The notes: a model not told the origin generated them from the letters alone. A stretch of 64,000 nucleotides of DNA from an uncultured Alphaproteobacteria bacterium (GCA_963782975.1 CAWALT010000003.1:589805-653804); one strand, 5' to 3'; shown: positions 583 through 23,192, numbered from the stretch's first letter. Made by a program: numbers and translations.

Positions 583-636
583 CGTGCCTTCGATAAGATG
601 GAAGTAAAGAAAAAGTGAGCTGGTAGAAGGAAGCGG

Positions 637-1560: not shown

Positions 1561-1567
1561 TAGAATG

Positions 1568-2017: not shown

Positions 2018-2118
2018 AGTTCGCCAAGTTGAGCAAGAGTGAGGCGAGGGTGAGGCAAAAGCTTAACCGGCTTACCTTTATAATATATGGTTACGTCGAA
2101 GCTTGTCCTTGCTAATGA

Positions 2119-2493: not shown

Positions 2494-2609
2494 GTTTATC
2501 TCCTTACCTAGAAATGTTTTAGGTGATTTTTAACTTTTTTGCAACTTTTAGATCATTAATGTGGTGATAAGGGGAGAAAATTTCAACCCTTTACCAAACA
2601 TTTTCTTGT

Positions 2610-3371: not shown

Positions 3372-3652
3372 GAAAAGTGGAGCCTAAAAAACTTCCTTTT
3401 TGTTAAAATCTACTTTCTTATGTTAACTTTGTTTGAAATCAGGTTCATCCCCGATACTCTTACCTCATAACATTTGAGTGATATCCTCTGTATCTTATAG
3501 AATTTTTTCTCTATTTAGGTGCCATCTTTTCATGGTAATAATTTTCAAGGGACTGTCTTGCTATCTTGAGAATTTTTTATTTTTATTAGAAAGCGGCAGG
3601 CAACAGTTGACGATTCCTACTAAAGTACGTTAGTGGTGAAACTGTAATATCA

Positions 3653-4897: not shown

Positions 4898-5314
4898 AAT
4901 TGCCAAAGGCACACAATTATACGATAGTAGTATAGCCGTGTTTGGGCCCTGGGGATCTAATAATAGTTCTTGCCCTATATCCCCCGGGCTCTTGCGAGCC
5001 AGGCATCATGAGATGTCGTCAGTTTGCTCTCTAGAAAGTTGTATAGGCTAAAAGTCTTCTATTGGGCCATCAAAGAAGTTTTTGCTGTCGATCTCTATGG
5101 CCTGTTCCTTACTGTAAGGTAGGTGCCTTCGGCAATATACGTGGATAAAGCAAGTTAAAGAGCTGACATCTAAATATATTTACCAAGCGTTATGCCTTTA
5201 TTTGAGGTGTTTAGTAAGTTAAAGAGATGACTCGGTGATTGAAAGGTACGCATAAGTGTCGTATAATTTAAAACTTGTATTCCGTGAATAAATGCAGCAT
5301 TGGTGTTGAAGTGA

Positions 5315-6361: not shown

Positions 6362-6385
6362 GCCTGCGGTATTGCGGAGAATAAG

Positions 6386-8842
6386 ATGAAATTCACATTA
6401 TCTTGGTTAAAAGAGTATTTAGATACCACAGCATCTGTGGAGCAACTTACTGATGCTCTCATTCAGTTGGGCTTAGAAGTGGAAAATATAGAAAATCCCT
6501 CTCAGAGCTTAGCAGAGTTTAAAGTGGCTTACGTTAAGGATGTGAGAGTGCACCCTAATGCCGACCGTTTACGTATTTGTCAAGTGGAGACGAAAGAGGG
6601 GGAGGTAAAGGTTGTTTGTGGTGCTGCCAATGTAGCAGCTGGGCAGAAAATTATTTTTGCTCCTGTTGGGGCAACTATTCCTTCAACAGGGGTTGTATTA
6701 AAGAAAGCTGCTATTCGTGGTGAAGAAAGCTGCGGAATGATTTGTTCCTTTCAGGAATTGAAGATGAATGAGGAAGGGAGCAGCCAGGGTATTGCCGTTT
6801 TATCAGAGGATGCGCCGATAGGCATGCCAATCGCTGAATATTTAGAGATGGATGATCCTATTTTTGAAATTTTTGTTACCCCCAATCGTGCCGATTGCTT
6901 TGGTATTTACTATATTGCTCGTGATTTGGCAGCTAAAGGAATGGGCGAGTTAAAACCTTTACCAGATCTCTCTCTAGGAGAAGTAACTGGTCGAAGCCCC
7001 ATTCATCTATCGTTGGATCTTTCTGAGTCTGACAAGATGGCTTGCTCCCATTTTGCCGGGCGATATATCCAAGGGGTCAGAAATGGTCCGAGCCCTGCTT
7101 GGTTAAAGAAGCGCCTCAAAGCTGTAGGGGTCCGCTCTATCTCAGCAATCGTGGATATTACCAATTATGTTATGTTTTCGCTTAACCGGCCTCTTCATGC
7201 CTTTGATGCGGATCGAATTTCTGGGCAGGATGTACGTGTCCATACGGCAGAGAAAGGTCAAAAGTTCTTTGCCTTAGATCAAAAAGAATATGAGCTTGAC
7301 GCTATGATGACTCTTGTGTCCGATAGAGAAAAGCCTTTGGCGCTTGCGGGCATTATTGGTGGTCAATCGAGTGAGTGCTGCCCAAGTACGGTAAACGTTT
7401 TCCTGGAATCAGCTTTTTTCGACCCTGAGCGAACGACTTTAACAGGTCGAAAGCTTGGCATACTAACGGAATCACGTACCCGTTTTGAACGTGGGGTTGA
7501 TCCTAACATGGTGCGGTATGGTCTTGATTTTGCCACAAAACTTATCCTCGATATATGTGGTGGTAAGGCCAGCGAAGTGATCGAAGTAAGGAAACAAGAG
7601 GAAAAAAAGGAAAAAATTCTAGTATTGAGACGCCAGCGCCTTATTCAAGTTATAGGCAAAGATATCCCACAAGCCAAAAATTATCTTAATAAACTTGGTT
7701 TTAAGATAGATGAAAAAGCTTCCTCCTGGCAATCAGGTGTTCAATCGCTCACAAAAGATATTCTTACTCTGATCGTGCCCTCATGGCGTGTCGACATACA
7801 TCAGGAAGTGGATATTATTGAAGAAGTCATCCGTCTTGAGGGCTATGACGGTCTACCTCTCGAGCCTTTACCTCTCCAAGAAGATGTCTTAAGAAGACAA
7901 GCGTTAAGCAAAGAAAAATCGTTTGCAACCTCTGAGCTTCAAATAAAGAAGATTCTATGTACCCAAGGGTTAACAGAGGCTTATACCTGGTCCTTCATCA
8001 GCCCAGAGATGGCGGAATTATTCTCTAGCAAGCGGGACGACTTAACATTGGTTAATCCTATAAGCCAGGATTTATCGGTAATGCGTCCTTCCATTATTCC
8101 AGGGCTGCTGTTGGCAGCCAAGAAAAATCATGCGCGAGGCCAATCAAATGTGAACCTATTTGAATTGGGCACCGTTTTCTTTGGCACGAGCCTGGAGGAG
8201 CAACCCAGAGTCGTCACAGCTTTGCGAGCGGGGGTAAAGCATGACCCTCATTGGTCATCCAAACCTTCGGCAGTGACAGTCTTTGATATAAAGACGGACT
8301 TAGGCGCTGTTCTTAAGCGATATGGGCTGGATATTAATCGGATGACGCTTAGTAAAGAAGGAGTACCGAAATGGTATCATCCTGGGCGTTCTGTAACTGT
8401 GAAGCTTGGGAAAAATATATTAGGGTATTTTGGAGAGATTCACCCAAAAGTATTAAAAGGGTATGATTTTGAGAAAACCGTTGTGGCGTTTGAGCTTTTT
8501 ATTGAGAGGTTGCCCCAAAAAAAACAGAGCTTATCGAAAGGGCCTTTTGTTGCGACGAATTTAATGATGGTAACGCGTGATTTTTCTTTTATTGTGGACC
8601 GCGCTGTTCCAGCTCAGACGGTGCTTCAAACAGCTGAAAATGTTGATAAAGCATTGATTGTTAAAGCCGTTATTTTTGATATATTTGAGGACGGGGCTCT
8701 TGGTTCTCAGAGGAAATCTTTAACGCTTCGTCTTTGGTTGCAACCGAAGGTAAAGAGCTTTACACATGAGGAAATTGATCTTATAGCCAACAAAATTATA
8801 TCATCTGTGATAACCAAGACGGGGGGAGAATTAAGAGCGTGA
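6386..8842 (+). CDS. pheT: Phenylalanine--tRNA ligase beta subunit
   Basis: 818 aa. It has an N-terminal tRNA-binding (EMAP-like) domain, B3/4 and B5 domains, and a C-terminal FDX-ACB domain. It immediately follows pheS. Confidence 0.95.
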
Positions 8843-10650
8843 CCAAAATTGACCAATCTCTTATCCGCAATTTTGCCATTATTGCTCATATTGATCATGG
8901 AAAATCAACCTTAGCAGACCGGTTGATCCAATTATGCGGCGGGGTAGAAGAGAGAGAAATGCAAGACCAGCTTCTTGACTCAATGGATATTGAGCGTGAG
9001 CGTGGCATCACTATAAAGGCCCAAACCGTTCGTCTTATGTATAAAGGGCAAGATGGCAAAACTTATCAGCTCAACTTGATGGATACGCCAGGGCATGTAG
9101 ATTTTGCGTATGAAGTTAGCCGATCGCTTGCCGCTTGTGAAGGTTCTTTGTTGGTAGTGGATGCTAGTCAAGGAGTAGAAGCACAGACATTAGCTAATGC
9201 TTATCAGGCCATTGAGAATGACCATGAAATGATCCCAGTCTTAAACAAAGTCGATTTACCCGCAGCGGATGTGGAAAAGGTTAAAACTCAGATTGAAGAG
9301 GTTATTGGCTTAGATGCTAAGGATGCTGTATTGATTTCTGCAAAAACGGGTGTGGGAGTTAACGAGGTATTAGAGGCCATTATTCATCGGCTTCCGCCCC
9401 CTAGAGGAAATGAAACAAAGCCCCTACGCGCGCTTTTGGTTGATAGTTGGTATGACACGTATCTGGGAGTTGTGATCTTAGTTCGGGTTATAGATGGCGT
9501 GCTATCGCGTGGGATGAAAGTTAAGCTCATTGCGTCAAAAGCAGTATATCAGATCGATAAGGTTGGCTTTTTTAGCCCTAAGAAGCAATTTACGGATAAG
9601 CTTTATCCGGGGGAAGTTGGTTTTTTTACGGCGAATATAAAGCATGTGGCTGATACCCAAATTGGGGATACCATCACCGAGGAGAAAAATCCTACGACTG
9701 AGCCTTTAGGTGGCTTTAAGCCGAGCATACCCGTTGTTTTTTGTAGTTTATTTCCCTCCGAGAGTAGCGACTTTGAAGTCTTACGAGAAAGCTTAGCGAA
9801 ACTGCGGCTTAATGATGCTAGTTTTGTCTTTGAGCCCGATACATCCCCAGCGTTGGGGTTTGGTTTTCGCTGTGGGTTTTTAGGGCTCTTGCACTTAGAG
9901 ATTATTGAGGAGCGCCTAGAGCGCGAATTTAACTTAGATTTGGTGACAACGGCTCCTAGTGTGGTTTATCGGGTTCATAGAACAAATCGGACAATGAGTG
10001 AGGTGCACAACCCCTCGGATATGCCGGACCCGGTCCAAATTGACTATATTGAGGAGCCATGGATAAAAGCTACTATTTTGGTCCCTGATGAGTATTTAGG
10101 ATCTATCCTTATGTTATGTACAGAGCGACGCGGAGAGCAACTAAACCTTACTTATATTGGAAGCCGCGCTATGTTGGTTTATCGTCTCCCTCTTAATGAG
10201 GTAGTTTTTGATTTTTATGATCGATTAAAATCGGTGAGTCGGGGCTATGCAAGTTTTGATTACGAAATGGATGGCTACAATCGAGGTGATCTTGTTAAAT
10301 TGTCTATTTTAGTCAATAATGAAACGGTTGATGCGTTATCCATGATTGTGCACCGCTCCCAAGCCCAGGGGCGTGGTCGAACTCTATGCGAGCGTTTAAA
10401 AGATCTCATCCCTCGGCAACTTTATAAAGTAGCCATTCAGGCAGCTATTGGTGGCAAGGTTATTGCGCGTGAGACAATCTCAGCGCTCAGGAAAGATGTA
10501 TTATCTAAATGTTATGGGGGTGATATATCCCGCAAACGGAAGCTACTTGAAAAGCAAAAGGCAGGAAAAAAGAAGATGCGGCAAGTTGGTAATGTGGAAA
10601 TCCCTCAAAAAGCATTTTTGGAAGTATTAAAGATGGATGATAAAAAGTGA
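8839..10650 (+). CDS. lepA: Elongation factor 4 (LepA)
   Basis: GTPase G1 motif [13 protein letters not shown], followed by DTPGHVDF and NKVD. The unique LepA C-terminal domain is present. A 4-nt overlap with pheT suggests translational coupling. Confidence 0.95.
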
Positions 10651-10704
10651 GGGTTGAATTTTTTATGAAGATAGGGTTATAAGAAGAAGACGCTTTTTTA
10701 TTAA

Positions 10705-10796
10705 GGAGGGATGGCCGAGTGGCTGAAGGCGCACGCCTGGAAAGTGTGTATACGTCTCAAAGCGTATCGAGGGTTCGAATCCCTCTCCCTCCGCCA
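10705..10796 (+). tRNA. tRNA-Ser (anticodon GGA), long variable arm, CCA encoded
   Basis: Acceptor stem ggaggga/tccctcc. The anticodon loop cctGGAaag gives GGA. T-arm gaggg-ttcgaat-ccctc, discriminator G, then CCA. The long variable arm is typical of Ser. Confidence 0.85.
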
Positions 10797-10950
10797 TTAT
10801 TCTATGAGCTTCTTAAAAGAGGCTCATAGAATAATGATAGATGGCTCGAGGACGAGAACCCGACAGAGGGTTCGGCGAGCCCTGGTGAGCGACGCCGTAG
10901 GCGGCCCCAAAGGGGTGAGCGTTAGCGAACAATCCCTCTCCCTCCGCCAC
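10797..10950 (+). repeat. Integration-scar-like segment carrying a duplicated tRNA 3' end (att-like direct repeat)
   Basis: The tRNA 3' end atccctctccctccgcca (10779-10796) is repeated exactly at 10932-10949. The second copy is preceded by gagggttcg, a partial T-arm interrupted by a GC-rich ~55-nt insert. A perfect inverted repeat attattctatgagc...gctcatagaataat lies at 10797-10840. Confidence 0.45.
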
Positions 10951-11575
10951 CCTACGTTCTTCGAACTTCGGGCGGCACGCCAGAAGTGAGGTAGAACTAG
11001 GAGCGTCTCACGAAGCTTTAGCGTCGGTAGGGCGTAAAATTATGCGTTATGTTTATTTCCTAGAATTATCAAATAGCAATTATTTACGTTGGCTTTAGTA
11101 GCAATCTGAAACAACGAATTAAGGCTCATAATGACGGTAAAGTACCCGCAAAGCTAAAAAGGTTATGTTGCTGTTGAAACCAAAGAAAAAGCTATGGGCT
11201 TTAGAGAAATATTTTAAAACTGGATCAGGCAAGGCGGTGGCATTAAAGCGATTTCTTTAAGCCTTAGCCATATCATCCATACGTACGTAGCCTACCAACC
11301 GAAGCTTTAGCTTAGGGGGGAGAATCACAAAATCACCAAGTTCGCCCCACGATTTCCTATCTTGCTCTCCGTTTCTCCGTTACATGCGGACATTCGACCC
11401 GAAGGTACGCATGTCCAGAGCTCTTGATTTTACTGGGTTTTTCGAAAATGGGTCTTGAGGTTCGCTATTGGGGCTTCGAGCGGCGCATGTACCAGCAGAG
11501 TGAGAATTTTACGGTGAAACCCCAGGTTTCTATTGCTTAACGCTTGACTATTTAGTATATAAGCATACAATATGT

Positions 11576-12022
11576 ATGGATACTAAAGAGGCGTATATGT
11601 GGACAAGAACCTATAGCAAGACCTTTGAGGGCATTAGCTCGGAGGATATCTGGCGCATTTGGACAGACGTAAATAGTTGGCCAACTTGGCATGGTGATTT
11701 GGATTACTGCAAGCTTGAGGGTGACTTCGTGGTTGGTAACCATTTCATATTAAAGCCCAAAGGCGTGAAGCCCGTGAAAATCTTACTGACAGAAATTAAT
11801 GAAGGGCACCATTTTACCGACTGCACTTCGTTCTTCGGTGCCAAGATGTATGATACTCACTCTATGGAGAATACAGCAGAGGGACTAATCCTAACGAATA
11901 AACTGGTTGTGACCGGCCCGCTAAAATGGCTCTGGATCAAACTTGTGGCACAAAACGTAGCTGACACCGTGCCAGAGGAAATGGAAAATCTAGTAAAGCT
12001 TGCAAGAGGCAGAAATGTCTAA
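11576..12022 (+). CDS. SRPBCC-family protein (polyketide cyclase / AHSA1-like small-molecule-binding fold)
   Basis: 148 aa with Polyketide_cyc2-like sequence (WPTWHGD). It is the first gene of a three-gene overlapping operon. Confidence 0.5.
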   Translation: MDTKEAYMWTRTYSKTFEGISSEDIWRIWTDVNSWPTWHGDLDYCKLEGDFVVGNHFILKPKGVKPVKILLTEINEGHHFTDCTSFFGAKMYDTHSMENTAEGLILTNKLVVTGPLKWLWIKLVAQNVADTVPEEMENLVKLARGRNV

Positions 12023-12476
12023 CTTACCCTTTGGCTTTGACACACCAGAAGACAGCCCAGGGTTTCTACTCTGGCAAACGACCATGATCTGGCAGCGGCA
12101 AATTAAAAAGTCTTTGGAGCCTTATGATATATCTCATGCCCAGTTTGTCATTATGGCGACTTTAATGTGGTTTGAAGCTCATCACTATGACACGACCCAA
12201 ATCCTCATCGTGAACTGGTCCAAGCTTGATAAGATGACTGTTTCAAAGTCGCTCAGGAAACTTGTGGCACTTGGATGCGTGAATCGCATTGAACATGAAA
12301 CAGATACACGTGCTAAGAGCGTCTCGCTTACAGAGAAAGGTAAAGAGATGGTGCGCATGCTCGTTCCCATTGTCGAAGGAATTGATAGTACCTTTTTTAG
12401 TAAAGCATCTCATAAGGAACAAAAAAGTCTTGTGCATATTTTAGCGAAATTAACCGCAGGTACCCCAGATGAATAA
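12015..12476 (+). CDS. MarR-family transcriptional regulator
   Basis: Winged-helix region (LVALGCVNRIEHETDTRAKSVSLTEKGKEM). The ATG at 12015 overlaps the upstream stop (atgtctaa). The ORF track starts at 12000. Confidence 0.7.
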   Translation: MSNLPFGFDTPEDSPGFLLWQTTMIWQRQIKKSLEPYDISHAQFVIMATLMWFEAHHYDTTQILIVNWSKLDKMTVSKSLRKLVALGCVNRIEHETDTRAKSVSLTEKGKEMVRMLVPIVEGIDSTFFSKASHKEQKSLVHILAKLTAGTPDE

Positions 12477-12921
12477 GACAGCAAAATTCTGGATTGGCGT
12501 TGCTTGCAAAGAGCATGTAGAAAACGGTATTAAGCTTGGTATTTGCCAATTCTGTCACGGCAAATCTGCGCCTGCTAAACGATTATCCCGTGGTGATTTC
12601 GTGATTTATTACTCGTCTAAAGTAACTATGGAAGGATCTGAGCTCTATCAAAAATTTACTGCAATTGGCAAGGTAATTGATGATATGCCTTACCAAGTAG
12701 ATATGGGAGATGGACTCAAACCATTTAGGCGCAATATCAGTTATTTTGACGCAAAGCACATTGATATCAAATCGCTTGTATCGTTGCTAGACTTTATTAA
12801 AAATAAAGCTTCCTGGGGCTATGTTTTTCGCTATGGTTTTTTAGAAATTGATCAAAGATCGTTCGAAATAATCGCAACACATATGCTTGGAAGAAATCCC
12901 ATCAGAGAGGTAGATGCTTGA
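12469..12921 (+). CDS. EVE (PUA-like) domain protein
   Basis: 150 aa. The N-terminal KFWIGVACKEHV and the GDFVIYYSS...AIGKV pattern match the EVE fold. The start overlaps the marR stop by 8 nt. Confidence 0.55.
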   Translation: MNKTAKFWIGVACKEHVENGIKLGICQFCHGKSAPAKRLSRGDFVIYYSSKVTMEGSELYQKFTAIGKVIDDMPYQVDMGDGLKPFRRNISYFDAKHIDIKSLVSLLDFIKNKASWGYVFRYGFLEIDQRSFEIIATHMLGRNPIREVDA

Positions 12922-13121
12922 TGACGCTAAAGTTTTAGAGCATAGATGATTTTTGCACATGCATTTTTTAGAGAACAGAAACCGGAGTAGGGGTTGGGAA
13001 TTCGAAACGGAGAAAGTAAGGCAAATCAAGGGTTGGCAAGCAGATCCCACTAACTTTCCAAAAAGGAATATTATATATATAATTTATGCGTAGTTAAAAC
13101 TGAATTTGATGAGTATTAAGG

Positions 13122-13556
13122 ATGACTGTCTTGAGCTTTAAAATTATCAATCATGGTTCGCGTGAATACGAGGCAGCCGTAAAATTACGTGAAGGTATTC
13201 TACGTAAACCTTTAGGGCTTATCTTTTTGCCAGAAGAACTTGTAGCAGAAAAAGACCATATCCAAATTGCAGGGTTTCAAGGTGATGAAATTATTAGCAC
13301 AGCAGTGCTCGTACCGGAAGGCAACGATTATAAGATGCAGAGGGTTGTCGTGAAACAAGGGCTGCAAGATTCAGGCATTGGCTCGAAGATGTTAGAGTTT
13401 TGTGAAGCTTACGCAAAACATCAAGGCATTCGTTTCATTTACTGTCATGCAAGATATTCAGCCGTCAATTTTTATCTAAAGAATGGTTGGGTTGCTGAAG
13501 GGGATTATTTTGAGGAAGATACCATCCCGCACCTTAAAATGGGGAAGGTGCTATGA
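13122..13556 (+). CDS. GNAT-family N-acetyltransferase
   Basis: 144 aa with an acetyl-CoA-binding motif (VVVKQGLQDSGIGSKMLEFCEAYAKHQG). It overlaps the next gene by 4 nt. Confidence 0.7.
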   Translation: MTVLSFKIINHGSREYEAAVKLREGILRKPLGLIFLPEELVAEKDHIQIAGFQGDEIISTAVLVPEGNDYKMQRVVVKQGLQDSGIGSKMLEFCEAYAKHQGIRFIYCHARYSAVNFYLKNGWVAEGDYFEEDTIPHLKMGKVL

Positions 13557-14446
13557 CTTTTAATCATGTTATAGGAATGATAACACCCTCTAGCCCAGCG
13601 CCTGATGCCTTGGTCGAACAATCTGTCACATTTTTCGAAGCATTAGGGTTTAAAGTAAAAACAGGAAAGCATCTTGATAAAAATGAATTATTTGCAGCTG
13701 GTACTGATGAAGAAAGAGCCACAGATATCATGGATTTTTTCAAAGACCCAGAAATTTCAGTCATCATAACAACCAATGGAGGCGCTTGTTCAATTAGGAC
13801 CTTGCCTCTTTTAGATTATGGTCTGATTCAACAAAATCCAAAGATTATTGTAGGCTATTCAGACACAACAGCTTTACAGTTAGGTATTTATGCAAAAACT
13901 GGTGTATTATCTGTAACAGGCTTTAATTGCAGCGATATTAAAAATGGAGTTGTGGCCGATAACACATGGGCCTCTCTTTTAAATTGCTTAAATCAAAAAA
14001 GCTATTCTGTAAGCGGTGGTTATGCGGTCCACCATGGTAGTGTAACAGCCCCCTTAATTGGTGGAAACTTAACTTGCCTGCTCAATCTAATGGGAACGCC
14101 ATATCAACCAGATTTTTCAGGTAAAATTCTTTTAATAGAAGATGTTGGGATTGAGCCATACCTCGTTGAAGGTATGTTTTCTCAATTATACGTCGCAGGA
14201 ATACTAGATAACGTGGCCGGTATTATTATTGGCCATTTTACGGAATGTACGGCCAAGCATTTTGACTCCAAAGGCGTAACGACAGAAGATGTGATCGATT
14301 TCTGGTGTAAACGAATTAAGGTCCCATGCATTAAGAATTTTCCCTATGGTCATATTGAGAATGGGTACGTATTACCTCTTGGGCAGATTGTCACCTTAGA
14401 TGCTTCAAATTGTAGTCTGGATATTAATTTTACGGAGCAAATATGA
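13553..14446 (+). CDS. Peptidase S66 LD-carboxypeptidase (MccF / LdcA family)
   Basis: 297 aa with an S66-like motif (IVGYSDTTAL, containing the nucleophilic Ser). It resembles LdcA and the microcin C7 immunity protein MccF. Confidence 0.7.
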   Translation: MTFNHVIGMITPSSPAPDALVEQSVTFFEALGFKVKTGKHLDKNELFAAGTDEERATDIMDFFKDPEISVIITTNGGACSIRTLPLLDYGLIQQNPKIIVGYSDTTALQLGIYAKTGVLSVTGFNCSDIKNGVVADNTWASLLNCLNQKSYSVSGGYAVHHGSVTAPLIGGNLTCLLNLMGTPYQPDFSGKILLIEDVGIEPYLVEGMFSQLYVAGILDNVAGIIIGHFTECTAKHFDSKGVTTEDVIDFWCKRIKVPCIKNFPYGHIENGYVLPLGQIVTLDASNCSLDINFTEQI

Positions 14447-15462
14447 GCAAGTTATACTTCATAGGTGGCGCCAGTGGTAGCGGTAAAACGGCCGTTATGC
14501 CTTATTTAAAAGAGCTCTTGAGAGATACTATCGCCGTTTATGATTTTGATGACATCGGTGTACCCGATGGCGCTGACAAAAAATGGCGTCAGGAGTCTAC
14601 CGAGAAGTGGCTACAGAAATTATTCAAGGGTGACAAAGACGCCTGCTTGCTTGGTCAAGTTGTTTTAGGTGAAATACTTAGCTGTCCTTCCGCTAAACAG
14701 ATAGGAAAAATCAAATTTTGTCTTTTAGATGTTAGTGATTTTGAACGTATTGGGCGCCTCAAAAAGCGTAATACCTATGGCGTTGATCAAAACATGCTGA
14801 ACTGGTCAGCATGGCTTCGTATGCATCATCAGGATCCTCAATGGGCGCCACACGTTATCCAGGAAGACGCTGCCAGTATCATGGATTTTAGCCGACTATC
14901 TACTCTCAGAAGCTATGAAGAAGTTGCGAATATAAAAATCCTTGATACAACCAACCTTGCATTGCATGAAGTTGCGGGGGAGTTGGCAGATTGGGTAAAT
15001 CACACAGAAAATACTGACTACAATCTACCTATACCAAACACCAGTTATAGGCTGGAACTGAATGCCCCAAATGTATACAACACTATAGATCAAAAGTTAT
15101 TTGAGTTTAACAAGTCATGCGTTCCTGCGACACAGAAACCAGAAGTGATTCATCTAAATCTCACGATCAAGAACGGTGACGAAGTGATTGCAGGCATTTG
15201 CGCGGATGTGTACATATGGAAGATCCTTTACATCAGCGTATTTTTTGTTGAGGAAAATTACCGTCATCAAGGGTTAGGCACAATCCTATTGAATAAGGTC
15301 GAAGAAAAAGCAAAACAATTAGGCGCTACTTTATCTCACCTCGATACCTTTGATTTCCAAGCGAAAGATTTTTACCTCAAGCATGGTTATGAAGTGTTTG
15401 GCGTTTTAGACGACTGCCCCAAAGGCCATAAGCGATATTATATGAAGAAGGTTTTGAGGTAA
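14443..15462 (+). CDS. Fusion protein: N-terminal P-loop kinase (chloramphenicol-phosphotransferase-like / AAA_33-like) plus C-terminal GNAT acetyltransferase
   Basis: Walker A motif FIGGASGSGKTAV near the N-terminus. The C-terminal ~130 aa carry a GNAT motif (EENYRHQGLGTILLNKVEEKAKQLGA). There is a 4-nt overlap with the upstream gene. Confidence 0.55.
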   Translation: MSKLYFIGGASGSGKTAVMPYLKELLRDTIAVYDFDDIGVPDGADKKWRQESTEKWLQKLFKGDKDACLLGQVVLGEILSCPSAKQIGKIKFCLLDVSDFERIGRLKKRNTYGVDQNMLNWSAWLRMHHQDPQWAPHVIQEDAASIMDFSRLSTLRSYEEVANIKILDTTNLALHEVAGELADWVNHTENTDYNLPIPNTSYRLELNAPNVYNTIDQKLFEFNKSCVPATQKPEVIHLNLTIKNGDEVIAGICADVYIWKILYISVFFVEENYRHQGLGTILLNKVEEKAKQLGATLSHLDTFDFQAKDFYLKHGYEVFGVLDDCPKGHKRYYMKKVLR

Positions 15463-15466
15463 TGAT

Positions 15467-16486
15467 ATGCTAACAAAACCAAATCTTACAGACGAACAAA
15501 TCATTGCCTGTTTACACGAGGAGTACGGATTGAATGTGGAGACGATAACATTTCTTCCCATTGGGGCTGATTTTAACACGGCTGTCTATCGTGTTGTGAC
15601 AAATAAAGGATGGGAATATTTTCTCAAATTAAGGAGTAGTGAATTTTTGGAGGCCTCAGTGTCAGTTCCAAACTACTTGGCTGAGCTGGGTATCAAACAA
15701 GTAATCCCGCCTCTTGCAACCAAGACAGGACAACTTTGGGCAGACCTGGCATCCTTCAAGACGATTCTCTACCCTTATGTGGAGGGGCATAATGGCGTAG
15801 AAGCCAAACTATCAGAAGATCAGTGGGGTCAATTTGGAGCGGCCATTAAAAAGCTTCATAGCACCGATATTCCAAACGCCCTAACAAGTGGCACACCACG
15901 GGAAATGTTCTCTTCCAAATGGCGAGAAACCGTCAAAGCCTTTCTAATACGCATTGAAAATGAAGTTTTTGAGGAGCCTGTTGCTGTAAGAATGGCACTG
16001 TTCCTGAAATCCAAAAGTACTGAGATTCTTAAAATCGTTGAGCGAACTGAAGAACTTGCCATCACACTTCAAAAACAGATACTCGAATATATTTTATGCC
16101 ACGCAGATATTCATGGCTGGAACTTGATTGTTGATAAAGATGGTGCGCTGTATATCGTTGATTGGGATACCATCATTTTGGCCCCGAAAGAGCGAGATCT
16201 TATGTTTATTGGTGCCGGTATTTGGGATAGCGGTCGTTCACCGATTGAAGAGGAGAATCTTTTTTATCAGGGCTATGACCAAACAGAAATAAACCAAGAT
16301 GCAATTTGCTACTATCGCTACGAACGTATTATTCAGGACATCGGTGAATACTGCGAGCACATCTTTTTATCTGATGAAGGTGGTGATGATAGGATGCAAT
16401 CATTTGAATATTTGCAATCCTTTTTTCTGCCGAATGGTGCCATAGAGAGAGCATATCAGTCCGACAAAGCATTGACAGCTATTTAA
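15467..16486 (+). CDS. APH-fold phosphotransferase (aminoglycoside/macrolide phosphotransferase-like kinase)
   Basis: Brenner motif HADIHGWN (HxDxxxxN) and the DFG-equivalent IVDWD. The 339-aa length fits an APH or Mph enzyme. Confidence 0.65.
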   Translation: MLTKPNLTDEQIIACLHEEYGLNVETITFLPIGADFNTAVYRVVTNKGWEYFLKLRSSEFLEASVSVPNYLAELGIKQVIPPLATKTGQLWADLASFKTILYPYVEGHNGVEAKLSEDQWGQFGAAIKKLHSTDIPNALTSGTPREMFSSKWRETVKAFLIRIENEVFEEPVAVRMALFLKSKSTEILKIVERTEELAITLQKQILEYILCHADIHGWNLIVDKDGALYIVDWDTIILAPKERDLMFIGAGIWDSGRSPIEEENLFYQGYDQTEINQDAICYYRYERIIQDIGEYCEHIFLSDEGGDDRMQSFEYLQSFFLPNGAIERAYQSDKALTAI

Positions 16487-16530
16487 TGTGCAGTTGAAGG
16501 GGCTGGAGACTTTGATAAGGAGTTAAGAAA

Positions 16531-17772
16531 GTGGGTGGCAATATGACAAAAGACATTCAAAAACTTGAGCGAAATCTACTTTTAGAAAGCTCAAAACTTC
16601 TGAAGGAATGCTTTAAGAGACCTATTCGAATTAAAGATATGTATTTTTTAAGCGAGCCTGATAGACGCAATATTTTAGCGCGTTTAATTTTAGAGGACCC
16701 TCAGAAAAGTATCAACTCTGTCATACTAAAACAATCGCTTTCTCATAGAAGCCACGATAGCAGAGAGGATGTTTTGGAAAGGTTTGCACGTGAGTATGCA
16801 GGGCTCAAGTTATTAAGTGAATCAGATACCAACTATAGCGTCCCAAGGTTTTTTGGCGGAAACCAATCTTTATATTTTATCTTGTTAGAAGACTTAGGAA
16901 GCGAACATATAAGTTTAGTCGATAGCCTAACAAAATCAGACGCGGATAAAGCTTCTCTTGCTCTTAAACGCTTTACTAAATCACTGGCGCATTTTCATAT
17001 GGCGAGTATCGGCCGACTAAAAATTTATGACCAAATACTAAACCAAATATATCCTGGCAGGAAGACGATTCAAAGCGAGATAAAATGGAAACAAAATGAT
17101 TTATTGCCCAAATTAGAACGAGCATGCAGGATCTTTGAATTACCTTTTACTGACACCATAAAACGAGAAGCCATTTCAGTAATTGAGGAAGTATTTATGC
17201 CTGGGCCTTTCCATGTATTAACCCATGGTGATATTTGCCCAGATAATGTATTTGACCACGAAGATAAGGATGAGTTGCAGCTGATCGATTTTGAATGGGC
17301 AAAGCCGGGGAGCAGTTTATTAGATGCCACTTATTTTAAGATGAATTTTCCAACCTGTTGGTGTGCGAAAGCATTGCCGGAAAAGGTTATTATAGAGCTA
17401 GACCAACTTTATCGAGATATGATGGCACACAAAATTCCTGAAAGCTTGGATGATCATAAATACTATCATGCCTATACACACGCCTGCGGGTTCTGGTTGC
17501 TTAGAGCTATGCCCTTTGTTAAAAGAATAATGGAAAAAAATTATTCCTGGTCATCGGGCCCTGTCCCATCCGAATCTTTGTGGAAGCCAGAGCAAAATTT
17601 GGTTAGGCCACGCTTTATCTCGCGGCTCGAAGCATTCATTCAGGTTTCAGAAACACATAATCTTCTGCCACACTTGCGGCTCGTGGCCAAGCAGATGTTA
17701 GAGAAGGCATACCAGAAATGGTATGATGCTTGCCCACTTGATATGTATCCTGCGTTCAGCGCTAACCTATGA
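16531..17772 (+). CDS. APH/CHK-fold kinase (phosphotransferase enzyme family), second paralog
   Basis: Catalytic motifs LTHGDICPDNVF (HGDxxxxN) and LIDFEWA. 413 aa. Confidence 0.6.
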   Translation: MGGNMTKDIQKLERNLLLESSKLLKECFKRPIRIKDMYFLSEPDRRNILARLILEDPQKSINSVILKQSLSHRSHDSREDVLERFAREYAGLKLLSESDTNYSVPRFFGGNQSLYFILLEDLGSEHISLVDSLTKSDADKASLALKRFTKSLAHFHMASIGRLKIYDQILNQIYPGRKTIQSEIKWKQNDLLPKLERACRIFELPFTDTIKREAISVIEEVFMPGPFHVLTHGDICPDNVFDHEDKDELQLIDFEWAKPGSSLLDATYFKMNFPTCWCAKALPEKVIIELDQLYRDMMAHKIPESLDDHKYYHAYTHACGFWLLRAMPFVKRIMEKNYSWSSGPVPSESLWKPEQNLVRPRFISRLEAFIQVSETHNLLPHLRLVAKQMLEKAYQKWYDACPLDMYPAFSANL

Positions 17773-17864
17773 CACCTTCCTCGGCTTAAGATAGGAGAGG
17801 GTGCCCCCATTAAAGAGAATAAAGCAATAGTGGACAAGACGAGAATATGAATTTTTAAGAGCTA

Positions 17865-18400
17865 TAGGCACTCAATCGCCATTAAAGACCATGCAAGATC
17901 TAAATATATTATGGCGAGAGATTATCCTTATTACTCAGGCTATTATCATCAAAGGTCCTTTGAGGAGTGCGTGATGTATTTAGATGAGGCGGATAATTAT
18001 CAAGATAGTAGAATAGATCGCCTCATTATAGGTAAGTTTTACTCCATCGCAATATGATGGGAGGCACCCAAGGACATAGACATAATTGAATAGCAGCTTA
18101 TCCGCTAGATTCCCTTGATAACGACTTTGATGGATACGCTTCTATTCCGCCTAAAGCTTATAAGCTTAAAGGGAATACTGTGATAGGAAATAATGTTTGG
18201 ATTGGAGCCGATAGCATGTTTTGCCAGGCATCCAAATTGGCGATGGAGCGAAGGTCGGAGTAAGAAGTTTAGCAACTAAAAATATTGGCCCTTATGAAAT
18301 CTGGGTCGGCAGTCTAGCTCGTTTAATTAAGAAACGCGATATCCAAAAACTTTTAAAAATTAAATGGCGGGATTTAGATCTAATAACGTCGTAGGGTTAT
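17865..18400 (+). pseudogene. Xenobiotic (hexapeptide-repeat) acetyltransferase, Vat/CatB family; frameshifted pseudogene
   Basis: Conceptual translation across at least three frames recovers DYPYYSGYYH...RLIIGKFYSIAI, then NTVIGNNVWIGADSMF, then the family-typical C-terminus QKLLKIKWRDLDL (compare LLxIKWWNW). No intact ORF spans the region. Confidence 0.6.
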
Positions 18401-18716
18401 GGAATAGGTTTCAAGAAGGTAAGTTATAGTTAGTAAACTTTCTTATGTTTACCGCTCATTCTGCTTACTAAGCAAGATGTTTTCTGGAGGAGCTTGAATT
18501 GTCAAGGTAGGTAACAAAGGAGTATTAATAGAAAAAACTGCATAATAAAAATAACTTTTATTTGCCAAGAAAAAATAGTTATATTTAATATAAATTTATC
18601 ATATAAAATAAATTTATTGATTGTTTTGTCTGATTGTATTATTAATTTTCTTAAAAAATTAAACTTAGTGAGTCAGTAACATTAGGGTACCTGGTTTTAA
18701 GTATTTCTTATATTTT

Positions 18717-19769
18717 TTGGGTTTTACTTTTTTGATAAGCATGGTTTATCAAAAATATTACCCTACCTATGCATTGAGCCATATCTTAGATGAATATGGG
18801 TTTGTAGATGTGGAGCAAAAGCAAAGCTTGCAAGACTTATTCAAGCAAGCCTCTATTATCCCCCCTGATAAGTCATGGGAGGATATTTTTCCCAAACGAG
18901 CTGCTCAAGATGAATTGCTTTTAGACTTGGTGAAGATAATTGAGGAAACTCAGGAAAAATTTACTATTAGGAGTGGTACACAGGAGCGATGGGAGGTTCA
19001 ACCGCTTGAATGGATGCAGCGCAATGAGGAAAGGCTTCTTCATAATTTAAAGGTACTAGGCTTTGTTGAGGCTGTATCTCCTAAAGTTAAAAAGGTTGAT
19101 GCTATTTGTATCTTAGGCGCACGGAAAAAGATTATGGCTGAGCGCATTAAATATGTGGAGTTTTTGCAAAAAACTGACTCTCTACAAGCTAAAGCCATTA
19201 TTTTACTTGCTGGCGAGCGTTATGTAACGGAAGGTGTCGACGGTACGGAGGAAGAACTTTCGCACATTGCCAAGATATTTAAGCTGGATGATTGGCGAAA
19301 GCTAACGGAAACACACCTTATTCAATACTTATATAATAGGTCTGAGTTATATAAAAGCTCGTTGCCTGTTTATGTTATCGATACGCCGGCGCGGGAGTTG
19401 CCAAGGCCTACAACTCAGACAACGATCCTTGAACTTATTTCCTGGTTGCAAAATCATGACGGCATACAAAGTATATTATTTATCTCTAACCAACCTTATG
19501 TGAAGTATCAGGGGATTATCATTAGTTTGACTTTTAAGGAGAAAAGAAACGATATTGTCTACGAGATCGTAGGGCCCTCTGTTGCGCAACCAAGTAACAT
19601 ACCATCGATTATTGAAGGGCTAGGGTCTTATATATGGGCGGCTTCACCCACTGTGCTAGCGAGATTAAATGTCGATCTTATCAATCCTGGTATAAAGGCA
19701 GCCCTGAAGAAATTGTATCTTAAGCATCCTCTTATTTATCACTCTTTGCCAAAGTCTGTTAGGCATTAG
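18717..19769 (+). CDS. DUF218 (YdcF/SanA-like) domain protein with ~110-aa N-terminal extension
   Basis: Pattern DAICILGARKK...AIILLAGERY...YVIDTPA..RPTTQTTILE...ILFISNQPYV. It parallels the DUF218 signature ivvLGa...iilSGG...SrnTyENa...lVTs.Hm. It is preceded by a 300-bp AT-rich region. Confidence 0.45.
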   Translation: MGFTFLISMVYQKYYPTYALSHILDEYGFVDVEQKQSLQDLFKQASIIPPDKSWEDIFPKRAAQDELLLDLVKIIEETQEKFTIRSGTQERWEVQPLEWMQRNEERLLHNLKVLGFVEAVSPKVKKVDAICILGARKKIMAERIKYVEFLQKTDSLQAKAIILLAGERYVTEGVDGTEEELSHIAKIFKLDDWRKLTETHLIQYLYNRSELYKSSLPVYVIDTPARELPRPTTQTTILELISWLQNHDGIQSILFISNQPYVKYQGIIISLTFKEKRNDIVYEIVGPSVAQPSNIPSIIEGLGSYIWAASPTVLARLNVDLINPGIKAALKKLYLKHPLIYHSLPKSVRH

Positions 19770-19840: not shown

Positions 19841-20221
19841 ATGAACCTTGTTGTATATCAACGAAAGGCTACTTATTGCGTTTTTTTAATTTCCGTAGCG
19901 CTCCTCGCGAATTGCTCTGTATACAAAGCTTCTTCACATGAAGGAATAGCTGTTTCGGACATCAAAAAATGTTCGATGAAAGGTTGCTTCCTATCTCATG
20001 GGATGAAAATAATAGATCACCATCAGGAAAAAGACGGAAAATATGTAGAAATATATAGAGCCATAGCAAGGAAATCAGGGCTCAATTATGTGAGGGCTAT
20101 GGGACATGGAGTATTGGATGTTTGTACTCTTGGCATTTGGGAGGTCGCTGGTACCCCCGTAGAGGGGGCCTTCTCAAATAATCGAGGGGTATATTACGGT
20201 GAAGGCTACCTATCCTTATAA
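19841..20221 (+). CDS. Hypothetical lipoprotein
   Basis: N-terminal signal with a lipobox-like LLANC. 126 aa, no recognisable domain. Confidence 0.35.
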   Translation: MNLVVYQRKATYCVFLISVALLANCSVYKASSHEGIAVSDIKKCSMKGCFLSHGMKIIDHHQEKDGKYVEIYRAIARKSGLNYVRAMGHGVLDVCTLGIWEVAGTPVEGAFSNNRGVYYGEGYLSL

Positions 20222-20430: not shown

Positions 20431-21630
20431 ATGGGTCAATGGTTGATTGCTTTTTTACCTCCCTGCGATTAGGAGCTATGTCCTTTGGTTGCCCATTTAG
20501 CTTATTTTGAGCAGACCTATGTCAGGCAAAAACGCTGGATAAGTCATCGTGACTTTTCTCATCTTGTTGCCTTGTGTCAACTTTTGCCTGGACCAACCAG
20601 TAGCCAATTAAACTTTCTTGTTGGGCTAAGGCAAGCTGGATGGCTTGGAGCTATACTTTCATGGGTCGGATTTACGTTACCTTCGGCACTTCTTATGTAC
20701 AGCTTTGCCATTTTTGCTCCAAGAATCAATGGTTTTTTTATGGAAGCTGCTTTACATGGGTTAAAGTTAGTGGCTGTCTCTATTGTTGCGCATGCTGTAT
20801 GGACTATGGCGCCGCGCCTTTGCCCAGATCATCCCCGAATAACTATCGCTTTAACTGCGATGATCATGGTGTTTCTTATAGAAGGAGCCTTTGGACAAGT
20901 GGCAGCCATTAGCTTAGGGGCTGTTATTGGCTTGTTTTTTTGCCGCAACATGTCTTCCTGCAAAGGTAGCCAGATACCTTCTATAAGTTCTAAAAAGGGC
21001 TGGACTGCTTTGACATTCTTTTTTATCCTTCTGGTGGCTCTTCCTTTACTAGCTGTTTTTCTTCCGGCCGGGTGGGTGTCACTCATGGATATCTCATATC
21101 GCTCTGGAGCTCTTGTTTTTGGTGGTGGTCATGTGGTATTACCCTTATTACGGGACGCTATGGTGCCAACTGGTATGGTGACTGATGACCTCTTTCTTGC
21201 TGGTTATGGGCTTGCTCAGGGTATCCCGGGCCCTCTTTTCTCTTTAGTCGCTTATCTTGGAGTCGTAGCGGCTCCTGGAGGAGGGGCTACTATTCTTTGG
21301 AGTACGACAGCTCTTATTTTTATATTTTTGCCTGGGCTACTCGCGGCTATTGCAGGTGTTTCTTTTTGGCAGTGGTTGGTTAAGCACCCTGCACTACAAG
21401 GTGCGCTCAGTGGCATTAATGCTTCGGTTGTAGGCATTTTAGGAGCTGCTCTATATGATCCGGTATGGCTAGCAGCTGTTTTTAATAAAATAGATTTTAT
21501 CATTATCGTAACGAGCTTTTTCTTCCTTGAACGTTGGAAAATTTCACCGCTGCTTATAGTTATCTTTTGTCTGTTTGCGTCTACTTTTTCTAGGCTGTAT
21601 CTACACCTTAAGGAGGTAGTGGACAGGTAG
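20431..21630 (+). CDS. chrA: Chromate transporter ChrA (two CHR domains), with an in-frame TAG near the N-terminus (possible pseudogene or shortened start)
   Basis: CHR-family motifs VAHLAYF, CQLLPGP and, in the second half, FGGGHVVLPLL and GIPGPLFS. An ATG at 20431 is in frame with a TAG at 20470-20472. The ORF track restarts at a TTG at 20485. Confidence 0.75.
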
Positions 21631-22035
21631 AGAATAGAACGAAAAGAGACCTAGAAAGGAAAAATAATTGATTTTTCCCTAAAAAAGTTTAAGTTAATAA
21701 TGTTTAACTTAATTAATGAAAAATTTTTAAACCTAAACGGAGCAATGTCTATGACTTATTATGCTTATTATTATGAAAGCTCAAAAATATCCCGATTATG
21801 TAACTTCACAACATCTCATAGGTTTAAGCCATGGTTCATTCATTCACACAAACTATCCATTTCCTAAGTTTTAATTTTTCTCTGGTTGTTAAGGTCTTTA
21901 CCTCTTCTTGCACCCTCCCTTTACCTTTCTTAATTTCTTCTTTTTACCGATATTACTCTCCAATTTCTCCTAGCTATCGATATTAGTCCTTATTAATTAC
22001 GTCTTTAATTATCTAAAATACTTGGAGAGAAAATT

Positions 22036-22842
22036 ATGTCATTTTTATCATCTCACCCTATGGTGATTTGTGAACAATGGGAAAAGTTCACTGAAAAAGA
22101 GCATCAAACTTGGTGCTTACTCTTTCAAAGACAAGCAAAATTGTTAAAAAAACGAGCGGCACATGAAGTTATCAAAGGGATGGAGAAGCTTAATATCTGC
22201 CATGAACACATCCCCAGGCTGGCGGATCTAAATACTGTCCTAGAAAAGGAAACGGGCTTTTCAATTATACCCGTTAGCGGATTAATCCCTGAGGACCTCT
22301 TTTTTCAATTTTTATCTGAGCGGAAATTTCCTTCTTCCTGTTTCATTAGGCCTCCTCACCAGCTCGATTATTTAGAAGAGCCAGATATCTTCCATGATGT
22401 TTTCGGACATGTTCCCTTATTAGTAAATCCTATCTTTGCTGATTTTATGCAGGCGTTTGGGGTAAAGGGTTTAGAAGCTATTAAACTTGGAATGGCCAAA
22501 TTTGCAGCGGCTTTTTATTGGTTTACAGTGGAATTTGGCTTGATTCAAACGAAGGAAGGGCTAAAAATTTATGGAGCAGGGATTACTTCTTCTAGCGCGG
22601 AATCTGTGTATTGTTTAGATTCCCAGGAACCGAAGAGGATGAAATTTAATGTGCACCATGTAATGGCAACCAAATACCGCACAGATACCTTTCAAAAGAC
22701 TTATTTCGTTATTGAAAGTTTTGAGGAATTATTTGAATCGTTGCGTCGCTTAAAGTGGCAGAAGGTAAAAGATATCTGCTTACTTTCTCCTGACGTTGAG
22801 CAGGAAATTATTATAAATTCGAAACAGAAAATGCAATTTTAA
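22036..22842 (+). CDS. phhA: Phenylalanine 4-hydroxylase (biopterin-dependent aromatic amino acid hydroxylase)
   Basis: Iron-binding motif [10 protein letters not shown]. The 268-aa length is typical of bacterial PhhA. Confidence 0.9.
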
Positions 22843-22853
22843 GGAGGAATAGC

Positions 22854-23192
22854 ATGACCAATCCAACTTCATTAGCGAATAAAAAATGTATACCCTGCCA
22901 AGGCGACGTGCCACCGCTACCTTCGCAGGAAGTAGAGCGTTTACTTGCGCAATTGCACAGCGGGTGGCAAGTGGATGAGGCAGGCCATCTTTATAAAACA
23001 TATACGTTTCAAGATTTTATGAGCGCTCTGAAATTTGCTAACGAAATAGCGCTCATTGCTGAGCAAGAGGCGCATCATCCAGACTTAACGATTTCTTGGG
23101 GCGCGTGCAAGGTAGAAATATGGACCCATAAAATTAATGGTCTCACGGAAAGTGATTTTATACTTGCCGCTAAAATTGAGGCTATAAAATAA
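22854..23192 (+). CDS. phhB: Pterin-4a-carbinolamine dehydratase
   Basis: 112 aa with the EAHHPD motif. It lies directly downstream of phhA. Confidence 0.9.

Follow-up and report, generated by a model that had tools for sequence, protein, structure and literature searches.

An immobilised tRNA-Ser-linked island of predicted small-molecule-modifying enzymes in a Holosporales-like alphaproteobacterium and its mobile relatives in bacteria of protists

Genes for small-molecule-modifying enzymes are clustered at positions 13122–18400 on the plus strand of a 64,000-nucleotide (nt) stretch of DNA from an uncultured Alphaproteobacteria bacterium (GCA_963782975.1, CAWALT010000003.1:589805-653804), hereafter referred to as the window. 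Our analysis firmly supports the view that this cluster belongs to an immobilised, partly decayed and still selected copy of a mobile island family. Regarding its function, we consider it probable, at roughly 60%, that a tRNA-Ser-linked island (approximately 10.8–18.4 kb) was acquired horizontally with the cluster as its enzyme cargo, and that this cargo inactivates antibiotics or other toxic small molecules. The copy in the window is fixed and partly decaying owing to the loss of its mobility genes and of a CatB-type cargo gene. An earlier reading, made from the sequence alone, had described a cluster of small-molecule-modifying enzymes; this description is upheld, with the cluster now recognised as an accessory, horizontally acquired island. 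The sequence-only reading had placed the cluster at 13122–18400, and the enzyme genes do fill this interval, whereas the unit as a whole is larger, reaching upstream at least to 11319 and probably to a tRNA-Ser gene at 10705, and including genes for an SRPBCC protein, a MarR-family regulator and an EVE-domain protein.

Five intact open reading frames (ORFs), g1 to g5, occupy the plus strand from 13122 to 17772. The first, g1 (13122–13556, 144 residues), is predicted to encode an ElaA/GAT-like GNAT acetyltransferase; g2 (13553–14446, 297 residues), an S66 serine peptidase of LdcA-type architecture; g3 (14443–15462, 339 residues), an N-terminal P-loop small-molecule kinase domain fused to a C-terminal GNAT; g4 (15467–16486, 339 residues), an APH(9)-like kinase of the aminocyclitol type; and g5 (16531–17772, 413 residues), an EcKL/APH-fold kinase recognised by both the EcKL and the APH models of Pfam. 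They are followed on the same strand by the pseudogene of a CatB/Vat-type xenobiotic hexapeptide acetyltransferase (~17790–18394), which is spread over three frames with internal stops. All six elements were found where they had been placed earlier, and the domain calls for g1–g5 (GNAT, S66, kinase–GNAT, APH and a second APH-fold kinase) were borne out by profile searches. The stops of g1 and g2 overlap the starts of g2 and g3, respectively, in 4-nt ATGA junctions, g3 and g4 are separated by 4 nt, and g4 and g5 by 44 nt. The proposed run of four genes overlapping by 4–5 nt is thereby reduced to three genes with 4-nt overlaps, the g3/g4 junction being a short spacer instead.

The cluster has been maintained by selection. 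All diagnostic catalytic residues are kept in g1–g5, and the pairwise ratio of nonsynonymous to synonymous substitution rates (dN/dS) against the closest homologues lies between 0.03 and 0.21 for all eight island genes, including 0.10 for the SRPBCC gene and 0.03 for the MarR gene, with synonymous divergence (dS) to the closest copies ranging from 0.44 to 0.89. The island genes are under purifying selection.

Horizontal origin within a family of shuffled arrays

The core protein LepA served as a yardstick for comparing the divergence of the island with that of its host. The closest named relatives of LepA are those of Ca. Bealeia, Caedimonas and Paracaedimonas, at 77–78% identity; the maximum is 78%, and all of them are Holosporales-type. 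Judged from LepA, the host is a Holosporales-like, protist-symbiont-like alphaproteobacterium, in agreement with the alphaproteobacterial assignment made earlier. A Legionellales or Coxiella host, which the GC content and the APH(9) match had suggested, is refuted by LepA. The cluster proteins, in contrast, are 80–94% identical to homologues in Legionella, Coxiellaceae, Holospora, Rickettsiales and related metagenome-assembled genomes (MAGs). For instance, g3 is 91% identical to a metagenome protein and 89% identical to its counterpart in locus L002, and g4 is 82% identical to its Legionella worsleiensis homologue. Because the cluster proteins are closer to homologues in other classes than the LepA value of at most 78%, we conclude that the cluster is of horizontal origin. 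Exact-sequence look-ups of g2 and g3 returned no other contig.

To place the cluster among its relatives, a set of 72 loci encoding relatives of g3 was assembled in a scan with one genome per species, and all window proteins were compared with these loci by tblastn, followed by ORF clustering. Nearly all loci with at least 50% identity belong to Legionella, Coxiellaceae, Francisellaceae, Holospora, Finniella, Paracaedibacteraceae, Jidaibacter, Cyrtobacter, Anadelfobacter, Sarmatiella, Megaera, other Rickettsiaceae, Caedibacter and one Chlamydiota MAG. This taxonomic pattern, together with the high identity, means horizontal transfer among bacteria living in protists. The hosts of the family are intracellular, protist-associated Legionellales, Holosporales, Rickettsiales and Chlamydiota. 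Three near-identical arrays (L002, L009 and L071) are binned as Pedobacter, Rhizobiaceae and Janthinobacterium MAGs; these contigs are probably mis-binned, since their tRNA-Ser, array and serine-recombinase module are typical of endosymbionts.

The arrays follow a common plan, in which a conserved head of two non-coding elements, E1 and E2, often accompanied by an SRPBCC–MarR–EVE module, precedes a series of small-molecule-modifying enzymes that varies from locus to locus. What recurs as the core of this series is an APH(9)-like kinase (APH9) together with a P-loop-kinase–GNAT fusion of the g3 type. The usual order is APH9 followed at once by the g3 homologue (23 loci with a full-length APH9 gene and four more with remnants); the window is the only copy with g3 in front of APH9. 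After the pair come one or more GNAT genes and sometimes an S66 gene, and the coupling of an S66 gene to g3 is common to the window, Holospora obtusa (L007) and Cyrtobacter (L050). Within the g3 family, the kinase half is more than 80% identical, and the GNAT half has been swapped among at least three types. Other cargo of the arrays comprises further APHs, several GNAT classes, a methyltransferase, shikimate-kinase-like proteins, ABC exporters, ABC-F proteins, beta-lactamase-family proteins and an intact CatB-type acetyltransferase. Across genomes the cluster is thus patchy and shuffled rather than conserved with core-like synteny in all relatives. Forms of the g3 family of approximately 475 residues with a second GNAT were also observed (L009, L011 and L017, the last at ~9998–11428), and the g3 homologue P0063 (511 residues) additionally carries an ANT(2'')-type nucleotidyltransferase domain (PF10706). 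In L008 (14347–15504) and L009 (15274–16944), lookalikes of YbaK/ProX-like and AlaX-like editing domains stand beside an XRE/cupin-type regulator; reading of the sequences by eye was the basis of the YbaK/AlaX-like labels, as it was of the alanine and aspartate racemase labels used below for a related array.

Evidence of mobility comes from the relatives of the window island. In six loci (L002, L007, L008, L009, L017 and L043), the distal end of the array is occupied by a terminal module made up of a small ORF with no Pfam family, a large serine recombinase (Resolvase, Recombinase and Zn-ribbon domains), a DUF2924 protein and, often, a LexA-like gene. In L076, whose cargo order is that of L002, the last gene is unannotated, encodes 425 residues and is cut by the contig end. 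Parts of the cargo also reside on plasmids: the g3 kinase domain on a Ca. Megaera plasmid (82.5% identity), a g3-type GNAT on Legionella conjugative plasmids, including pLPP of strain Paris (76–78%), and a g5 homologue (49%) together with APH9 (78%) on an L. adelaidensis plasmid, within an island that carries a tyrosine integrase.

Catalytic repertoire of the cluster

Both acetyltransferase domains of the cluster are GNATs with the acetyl-CoA motif A (Q/R-x-x-G-x-G/A). In g1, motif A reads Q82-x-x-G85-x-G87 (QDSGIG); the protein matches Acetyltransf_10, _7 and _1 of Pfam and reaches 46.7 bits against the GNAT model, above the cutoff. Its PDB neighbours are ElaA, glyphosate acetyltransferase (GAT) and SACOL1063, and homologues with 67–72% identity occur in L016, L017 and L052. 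The C-terminal half of g3 bears the corresponding motif as R274-x-x-G277-x-G279 (RHQGLG), scores 49 bits against the Pfam GNAT model, again above the cutoff, and resembles PDB entry 1Y9W. Neither g1 nor g3 matches PF13302 (Acetyltransf_3, the RimL/MccE type), their PDB neighbours being the ones just named. In NCBIfam, the matches of g3 were confined to GNAT models and fell below threshold, and g5 matched no family.

The N-terminal half of g3 has a Walker A motif, G9ASGSGKT16 (residues 9–16), an acidic motif, D34-F-D36-D37, and conserved lid arginines. Pfam returned a weak AAA_18/Zeta-toxin-like P-loop match, and the search of the PDB by sequence found no match for this domain. Its structural model (pLDDT, the predicted local distance difference test score, of 77) resembles many P-loop small-molecule kinases, and the Walker A motif together with a nucleotide-kinase fold with a lid assigns it to the class that includes CPT, gluconate, APS and shikimate kinases. 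The label "CPT-like" given to this kinase earlier is over-specific for what appears to be a generic small-molecule-kinase fold. Known P-loop antibiotic kinases, chloramphenicol 3-O-phosphotransferase (1GRQ) and the tunicamycin-resistance protein TmrD (2VLI), are among the closest known systems. AAC(6')-Ie/APH(2'')-Ia is a bifunctional aminoglycoside-modifying enzyme that combines an acetyltransferase and a kinase. Like it, g3 joins a GNAT and a kinase in one polypeptide and is found among resistance-type genes; however, the kinase of g3 has a P-loop (Walker A) rather than the APH/protein-kinase-like fold and stands at the N terminus, so that the domain order is reversed, and the two proteins share no sequence relationship.

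Both APH-fold kinases keep the HxDxxxxN motif and the metal-binding aspartate, and the inactivating substitutions that would have spoken against a catalytic role are absent. The catalytic residues of g4 are K54, H212/D214/N219 and D232. The protein aligns over its full length (residues 6–333 with 5–330, E = 2.8e-70) to APH(9)-Ia of L. pneumophila (PDB 3I0O), in which K52, H210/D212/N217 and D230 occupy the equivalent positions, and the DWD metal site is kept. On this basis, g4 most likely acts on a spectinomycin-like aminocyclitol, which is our best single guess at a substrate. The g4 clade nevertheless stands apart from APH(9)-Ia in being horizontally mobile and nearly always paired with a g3-type fusion. 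In g5, the catalytic residues are H232/D234/N239 and D253, and homologues occur in L002 (61%), L007, L040 and on the L. adelaidensis plasmid mentioned above. The only solved structure with a sequence match to g5 is corramycin phosphotransferase (8AGY, E = 2e-9), the self-resistance kinase of a peptide antibiotic producer, with which HGDxxPxN and DFE align. This relation is weak (40 bits), g5 is 47 residues longer, and no biosynthetic cluster is present.

The frameshifted gene that closes the cluster had been called a dead Vat acetyltransferase. It is indeed a dead hexapeptide enzyme, but the Vat label gives way to CatB, since the stitched product scores 140 bits against CatB and 104 bits against Vat (Hexapep, 38 bits). 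An intact homologue with 39% identity is found in the Legionellales array L040.

The peptidase g2 deserves separate attention because it had been labelled "MccF-like". Both S66 domains were recognised by Pfam (E = 6e-34 and 3e-32), with a catalytic triad of S103/E196/H267; among 30 homologues, E196 and H267 are invariant and S103 is nearly so. By sequence, g2 is equidistant from MccF (128 bits) and annotated LdcA (128 bits). The two families can be told apart at the MccF catalytic loop, where residues 122–152 of g2 face residues 134–193 of MccF without alignment and g2 is ~29 residues shorter. Missing from g2 is the loop of 30–35 residues that bears the adenine-stacking tryptophan of MccF (W180 in B. 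anthracis, W186 in E. coli). The AlphaFold2 model of g2 (pLDDT 94) was compared with known structures by Foldseek, with TM-scores normalised to both target and query length. Normalised to the target, the scores were 0.86–0.90 for LdcA structures and 0.76–0.80 for full MccF chains; normalised to the query, they were 0.85–0.89 for both. The top Foldseek match is an MccF chain whose loop is disordered (the E-value to MccF being 1e-27). Because the model covers LdcA completely and leaves part of MccF unmatched, g2 is, as modelled, an S66 peptidase of LdcA-type architecture, and the MccF label is over-specific, as the nucleotide-clamping loop is lacking.

An LdcA-type architecture does not make g2 the housekeeping enzyme of its host. 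Against the LdcA equivalog NF008424 it scores 162 bits, under the cutoff of 378, and its relatives occur in mobile arrays rather than at a core locus. The closest are 81% identical in a gammaproteobacterial MAG (L013) and 80% identical in Holospora obtusa L007, and homologues with 69–81% identity adjoin g3 homologues in arrays of Holospora, Cyrtobacter, Legionella and the gammaproteobacterial MAG. Compared with the known MccF/LdcA enzymes (MEROPS S66), the g2 subfamily thus differs in being mobile and sometimes GNAT-fused. Fusions of a g2-type S66 peptidase to a C-terminal GNAT were observed in L013 (4093–5469) and P0253 (451 residues), both 81–84% identical to g2 over the peptidase part.

The tRNA-Ser head and the edges of the island

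The left edge of the island is formed by a tRNA-Ser(GGA) gene (10705–10796), identified by ARAGORN and Rfam. Downstream of it, likewise on the plus strand, lie E1 (11319–11510), a conserved non-coding element detected by nhmmer and nucleotide alignment; the gene for an SRPBCC (Polyketide_cyc2) ligand-binding protein (11576–12022, with the true start probably at 11597; Pfam); the gene for the MarR-family regulator (12000–12476; Pfam and NCBIfam); the gene for a UPF0310-type EVE-domain protein (12469–12921; PF01878, and 166 bits against NCBIfam PRK02268.1-2 with a cutoff of 139); and E2 (12932–13091), a conserved non-coding leader directly 5' of the enzyme array, detected by alignment and nhmmer. 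The SRPBCC, MarR and EVE proteins are 85%, 94% and 86% identical, respectively, to those of L013, and their genes also stand 5' of the array in L013, L036, L069, L042, L045 and L055. In the window and several other loci, this module is situated between E1 and E2.

Both non-coding elements are conserved across loci at 72–84% nucleotide identity; E1 is 80–84% identical to its counterparts in L069, L043, L030 and L009, and the mean for the E2 alignment is 77%. E1 was detected by nhmmer in 17 sources (16 loci and the window), always on the plus strand, and E2 in 10 (9 loci and the window), the two being contiguous in 8 loci. Three copies of CATGCGTAC/GTACGCATG are present in E1, of which two form an inverted pair separated by a spacer of variable sequence or length (~21 nt). 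This motif is conserved in 15 aligned sequences (the window and 14 loci, for example at L009 7857–8056 and L043 1626–1823) from three bacterial lineages and may be a protein-binding or recombination site. Promoter-like hexamers occur at 11544–11571, just 3' of E1, and at 13055–13083, within E2; the number of such matches in the region is not above chance. RNAalifold returned a positive covariation term for E2 and one conserved hairpin without real covariation for E1. A structured RNA or riboswitch was rejected, as there was no Rfam match at E ≤ 1 and no real covariation in E1 or E2. Consequently, the two elements are taken as putative DNA-level sites in preference to an RNA element.

The distance between the tRNA gene and E1 is nearly fixed in the family. 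E1 starts 105–108 nt past the CCA end of a tRNA-Ser (anticodon GGA, GCT, TGA or CGA) in 13 loci, which belong to Alphaproteobacteria, Gammaproteobacteria and Chlamydiota, and a tRNA-Ser lies just 5' of the array in at least 19 loci. The window has a gap of ~517 nt, which is accounted for by a 153-bp insert, 75 nt resembling the tRNA-Ser downstream region of L029, and a frameshifted GIY-YIG gene. At the ends of the insert, 19 nt of the tRNA-Ser 3' end are repeated exactly and in direct orientation on the plus strand, forming an att-like scar with one copy at 10778–10796 and the other at 10931–10949. The copies are 153 bp apart and bracket 134 nt, and 0.02 such matches are expected by chance; the sequence past the second copy is 86% identical to the tRNA-Ser downstream region in L029. 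The repeat-bounded insert resembles what another small integration event, the second at this tRNA-Ser, would leave behind. It opens with a near-perfect 20-nt hairpin (10795–10814/10817–10836).

The GIY-YIG nuclease pseudogene (11042–11260, plus strand), which has at least two frameshifts and whose stitched product scores 36.9 bits against PF01541, sits between tRNA-Ser and E1 in the window and in none of the other loci. A contig from an independent metagenome assembly, L001 (Logan contig ERR11571143_1394843), carries LepA, is 100% identical to window positions 1–10741 and ends inside the tRNA-Ser at the island edge, which suggests either strain variation or a repeat-induced assembly break. A hybrid tRNA test, which asks whether the element supplied the 3' half of the tRNA-Ser, was not diagnostic because the acceptor and T-arm are alike on both sides across loci.

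To the right of the island are two ORFs (18717–19769, 350 residues, and 19841–20221, 126 residues) with no match in Pfam, NCBIfam, PADLOC or PHROG and no homologue in the 72 loci; they are preceded by a low-GC stretch (0.346 over 18001–19000). These ORFs may be lineage-specific genes that mark the right boundary. Further along, at 20485–23192 and 27745–28764, the window encodes a ChrA-family chromate efflux transporter, a phenylalanine-4-hydroxylase with a pterin-4a-carbinolamine dehydratase, and an Ion_trans-family cation channel. Other kinds of gene collection were also considered. An integron-like cassette array was rejected, although no search aimed at IntI was made, because the gene overlaps and 4–44-nt gaps leave no room for attC sites. 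Anti-phage defence and prophage origin were likewise rejected, as PADLOC gave no meaningful match and PHROGs nothing relevant.

Function, competing explanations and significance

The mechanism that we propose is one of chemical inactivation. Toxic compounds would be O-phosphorylated by the g3 N-terminal domain, g4 and g5, and N- or O-acetylated by g1 and the g3 C-terminal domain, while g2 would hydrolyse peptide bonds and the MarR regulator would derepress the operon in response to a ligand. Four observations lead us to infer this function: the enzymes have antibiotic kinases and xenobiotic acetyltransferases as their nearest characterised relatives, the operon is headed by a MarR regulator, related arrays hold resistance-type genes as neighbours, and the genes are carried on mobile elements.

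Several observations weigh against this interpretation. None of g1–g5 is an enzyme with an established substrate, and the need of obligate intracellular bacteria for antibiotic inactivation is not obvious; host or self metabolites could be alternative targets. The P-loop domain of g3 has no specific structural neighbour. The identity of g4 to APH(9)-Ia is 34% over 322 residues, and its score against the NCBIfam model of APH(9)-Ia is 267 bits, far under the cutoff of 680 (for APH(9)-Ib, 25 bits with a cutoff of 675). This divergence is comparable to that of APH(9)-Ic, a proven spectinomycin kinase despite an identity to APH(9)-Ia of 33.75% (PMC9868417). With regard to mobility, tblastn with the serine-recombinase modules of related loci found no match in the 64-kb window. 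There is also no right-end copy of the tRNA 3'-end repeat, the sole repeat lying 153 bp from the tRNA end; long flanking repeats are not expected where a serine recombinase mediates integration. Owing to the lack of a recombinase and of a right-end repeat, the right boundary (~18.4–18.7 kb) is drawn from loss of homology only. Finally, the GC content of the island (0.38–0.42) is the same as that of the rest of the window. Composition as evidence of foreign origin was uninformative, because the island falls within the range of the window and the likely donors have similar GC.

Four other explanations have to be weighed against the inactivation of toxic compounds, and two of them centre on the peptidase. 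The sequence-only reading had offered two options, a multi-drug inactivation island, which is plausible, and self-resistance to an aminoacyl-nucleotide-like compound. Under the latter, taken as immunity to a microcin C-like aminoacyl- or peptidyl-nucleotide antibiotic, the S66 enzyme would behave like MccF in cleaving the bond between the aminoacyl group and the nucleotide, and the adjacent GNATs would modify the processed toxin by acetylation in the manner of MccE/RimL. It is true that g2 is as near to MccF as to any LdcA, that it is translationally coupled to GNATs on both sides, and that S66–GNAT fusions exist in L013 and P0253; YbaK- or AlaX-like proteins, labelled by eye, also occur in some related arrays. 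However, g2 lacks the MccF loop, its TM-scores favour LdcA and its top match is an MccF chain in which the loop is disordered, and the GNATs of g1 and g3 are not of the RimL/MccE type. A RimL-class (Acetyltransf_3) GNAT does follow the S66 gene in L007 and L050, but the one in L007 matches 3fbu, PA3944 and SpeG, with no MccE match at E ≤ 0.001. As had been noted earlier for an MccB-like synthetase, no gene for an MccB adenylyltransferase, a ThiF-like protein or MccE is present among the ORFs annotated at window positions 1–38.7 kb. Taken together, we regard microcin C-like immunity as highly improbable. A housekeeping role in salvage or cell-wall recycling, in which g2 would trim murein tetrapeptides while amino sugars or other metabolites would be the substrates of the kinases and acetyltransferases, much as in anomeric sugar kinases of the AmgK type, fits the LdcA-like size and fold of g2 and its intact triad. 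The named proteins nearest to g2 (~50%) are S66 members encoded on Legionella chromosomes, with the annotation muramoyltetrapeptide carboxypeptidase, and two ORFs of the Holospora L007 array (c35 and c64) were read as alanine and aspartate racemases. This explanation is nevertheless quite unlikely, given that g2 falls short of the LdcA cutoff, that the genes are patchy, shuffled, horizontally transferred, tRNA-adjacent and, in relatives, recombinase- or plasmid-linked, that g4 is specifically APH(9)-like, and that a MarR regulator and a dead CatB-type gene suit a xenobiotic context better.

The distribution of the family raises the question of whether the enzymes are symbiosis factors, either secreted effectors acting on host molecules or modifiers of a host- or protist-derived compound. 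Legionella effectors include kinases and GNATs, and a symbiotic role would account for the near-confinement of the genes to intracellular bacteria of protists, which is seen in the strong skew towards Legionellales, Holosporales, Rickettsiales and Chlamydiota. Genes exchanged among such bacteria have also been proposed to counter amoebal microbicidal defences (PMC3220658). We consider this unlikely on balance. The operon is compact, shows translational coupling and stands under a MarR-type regulator, and among characterised proteins it is antibiotic kinases that come closest. The genes are also shared by lineages whose secretion systems differ, including Chlamydiota; moreover, no eukaryote-like domains or secretion signals were seen, although no dedicated signal prediction was made. 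It is also conceivable that the cluster no longer functions and is the remnant of a dead mobile element, its genes having simply not had time to degrade. The window copy is without a recombinase, holds two pseudogenes (GIY-YIG and CatB-type) and has a remodelled left junction, and frameshifted copies exist in related loci (g5 in L007, g2 and g3 in L050, L070, and APH9 in L076). Yet the eight ORFs that remain all have their full length and retain their catalytic motifs, the dN/dS values are those of constrained genes, and the translational coupling signals are kept, which makes a relic very unlikely.

Beyond the inactivation of toxic compounds by an acquired island, a more specific proposal can be put forward tentatively, as a possibility that we rate as doubtful. 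The APH(9)-like kinase and the P-loop-kinase–GNAT fusion might constitute a two-gene, three-activity system against a single aminocyclitol/aminoglycoside-like compound or a toxin encountered in protists. This system would be carried by a previously undescribed serine-recombinase element that inserts at a fixed distance 3' of a tRNA-Ser of any isoacceptor and could thereby cross between Alphaproteobacteria, Gammaproteobacteria and Chlamydiota with protist hosts in common, with E1/E2 and their CATGCGTAC motifs as its attachment and regulatory region.

The transfer of resistance-type genes among amoeba symbionts, the "melting pot", has been documented previously (Gimenez 2011, PMC3220658; Wang and Wu 2017, PMC5751055), and the published classes of exchanged genes include acetyltransferases, the aminoglycoside phosphotransferase family and mccF/COG1619. 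The organisms are the same as here, namely Legionella, Rickettsiales, Holosporaceae and Parachlamydia; those studies differ in listing single gene families. Genomic islands linked to tRNA genes are a further known parallel. In a limited literature search, we found no description of an organised array, of a core of APH(9)-like kinase and P-loop-kinase–GNAT fusion, of an E1/E2 head ~107 nt 3' of tRNA-Ser, or of the serine-recombinase module. A specific vehicle for this exchange inside protists, hitherto described one gene at a time, is indicated by the fixed position relative to tRNA-Ser, the head conserved among loci and the serine-recombinase module.

Should antibiotics indeed be inactivated by these enzymes, relatives of Legionella and other endosymbionts of protists would have in common a mobile reservoir of uncharacterised resistance enzymes, and g3 would represent a new kind of bifunctional kinase–acetyltransferase that curated resistance models have missed. 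If the substrates are instead host-derived, the island would mark a common chemical challenge of life inside protists.

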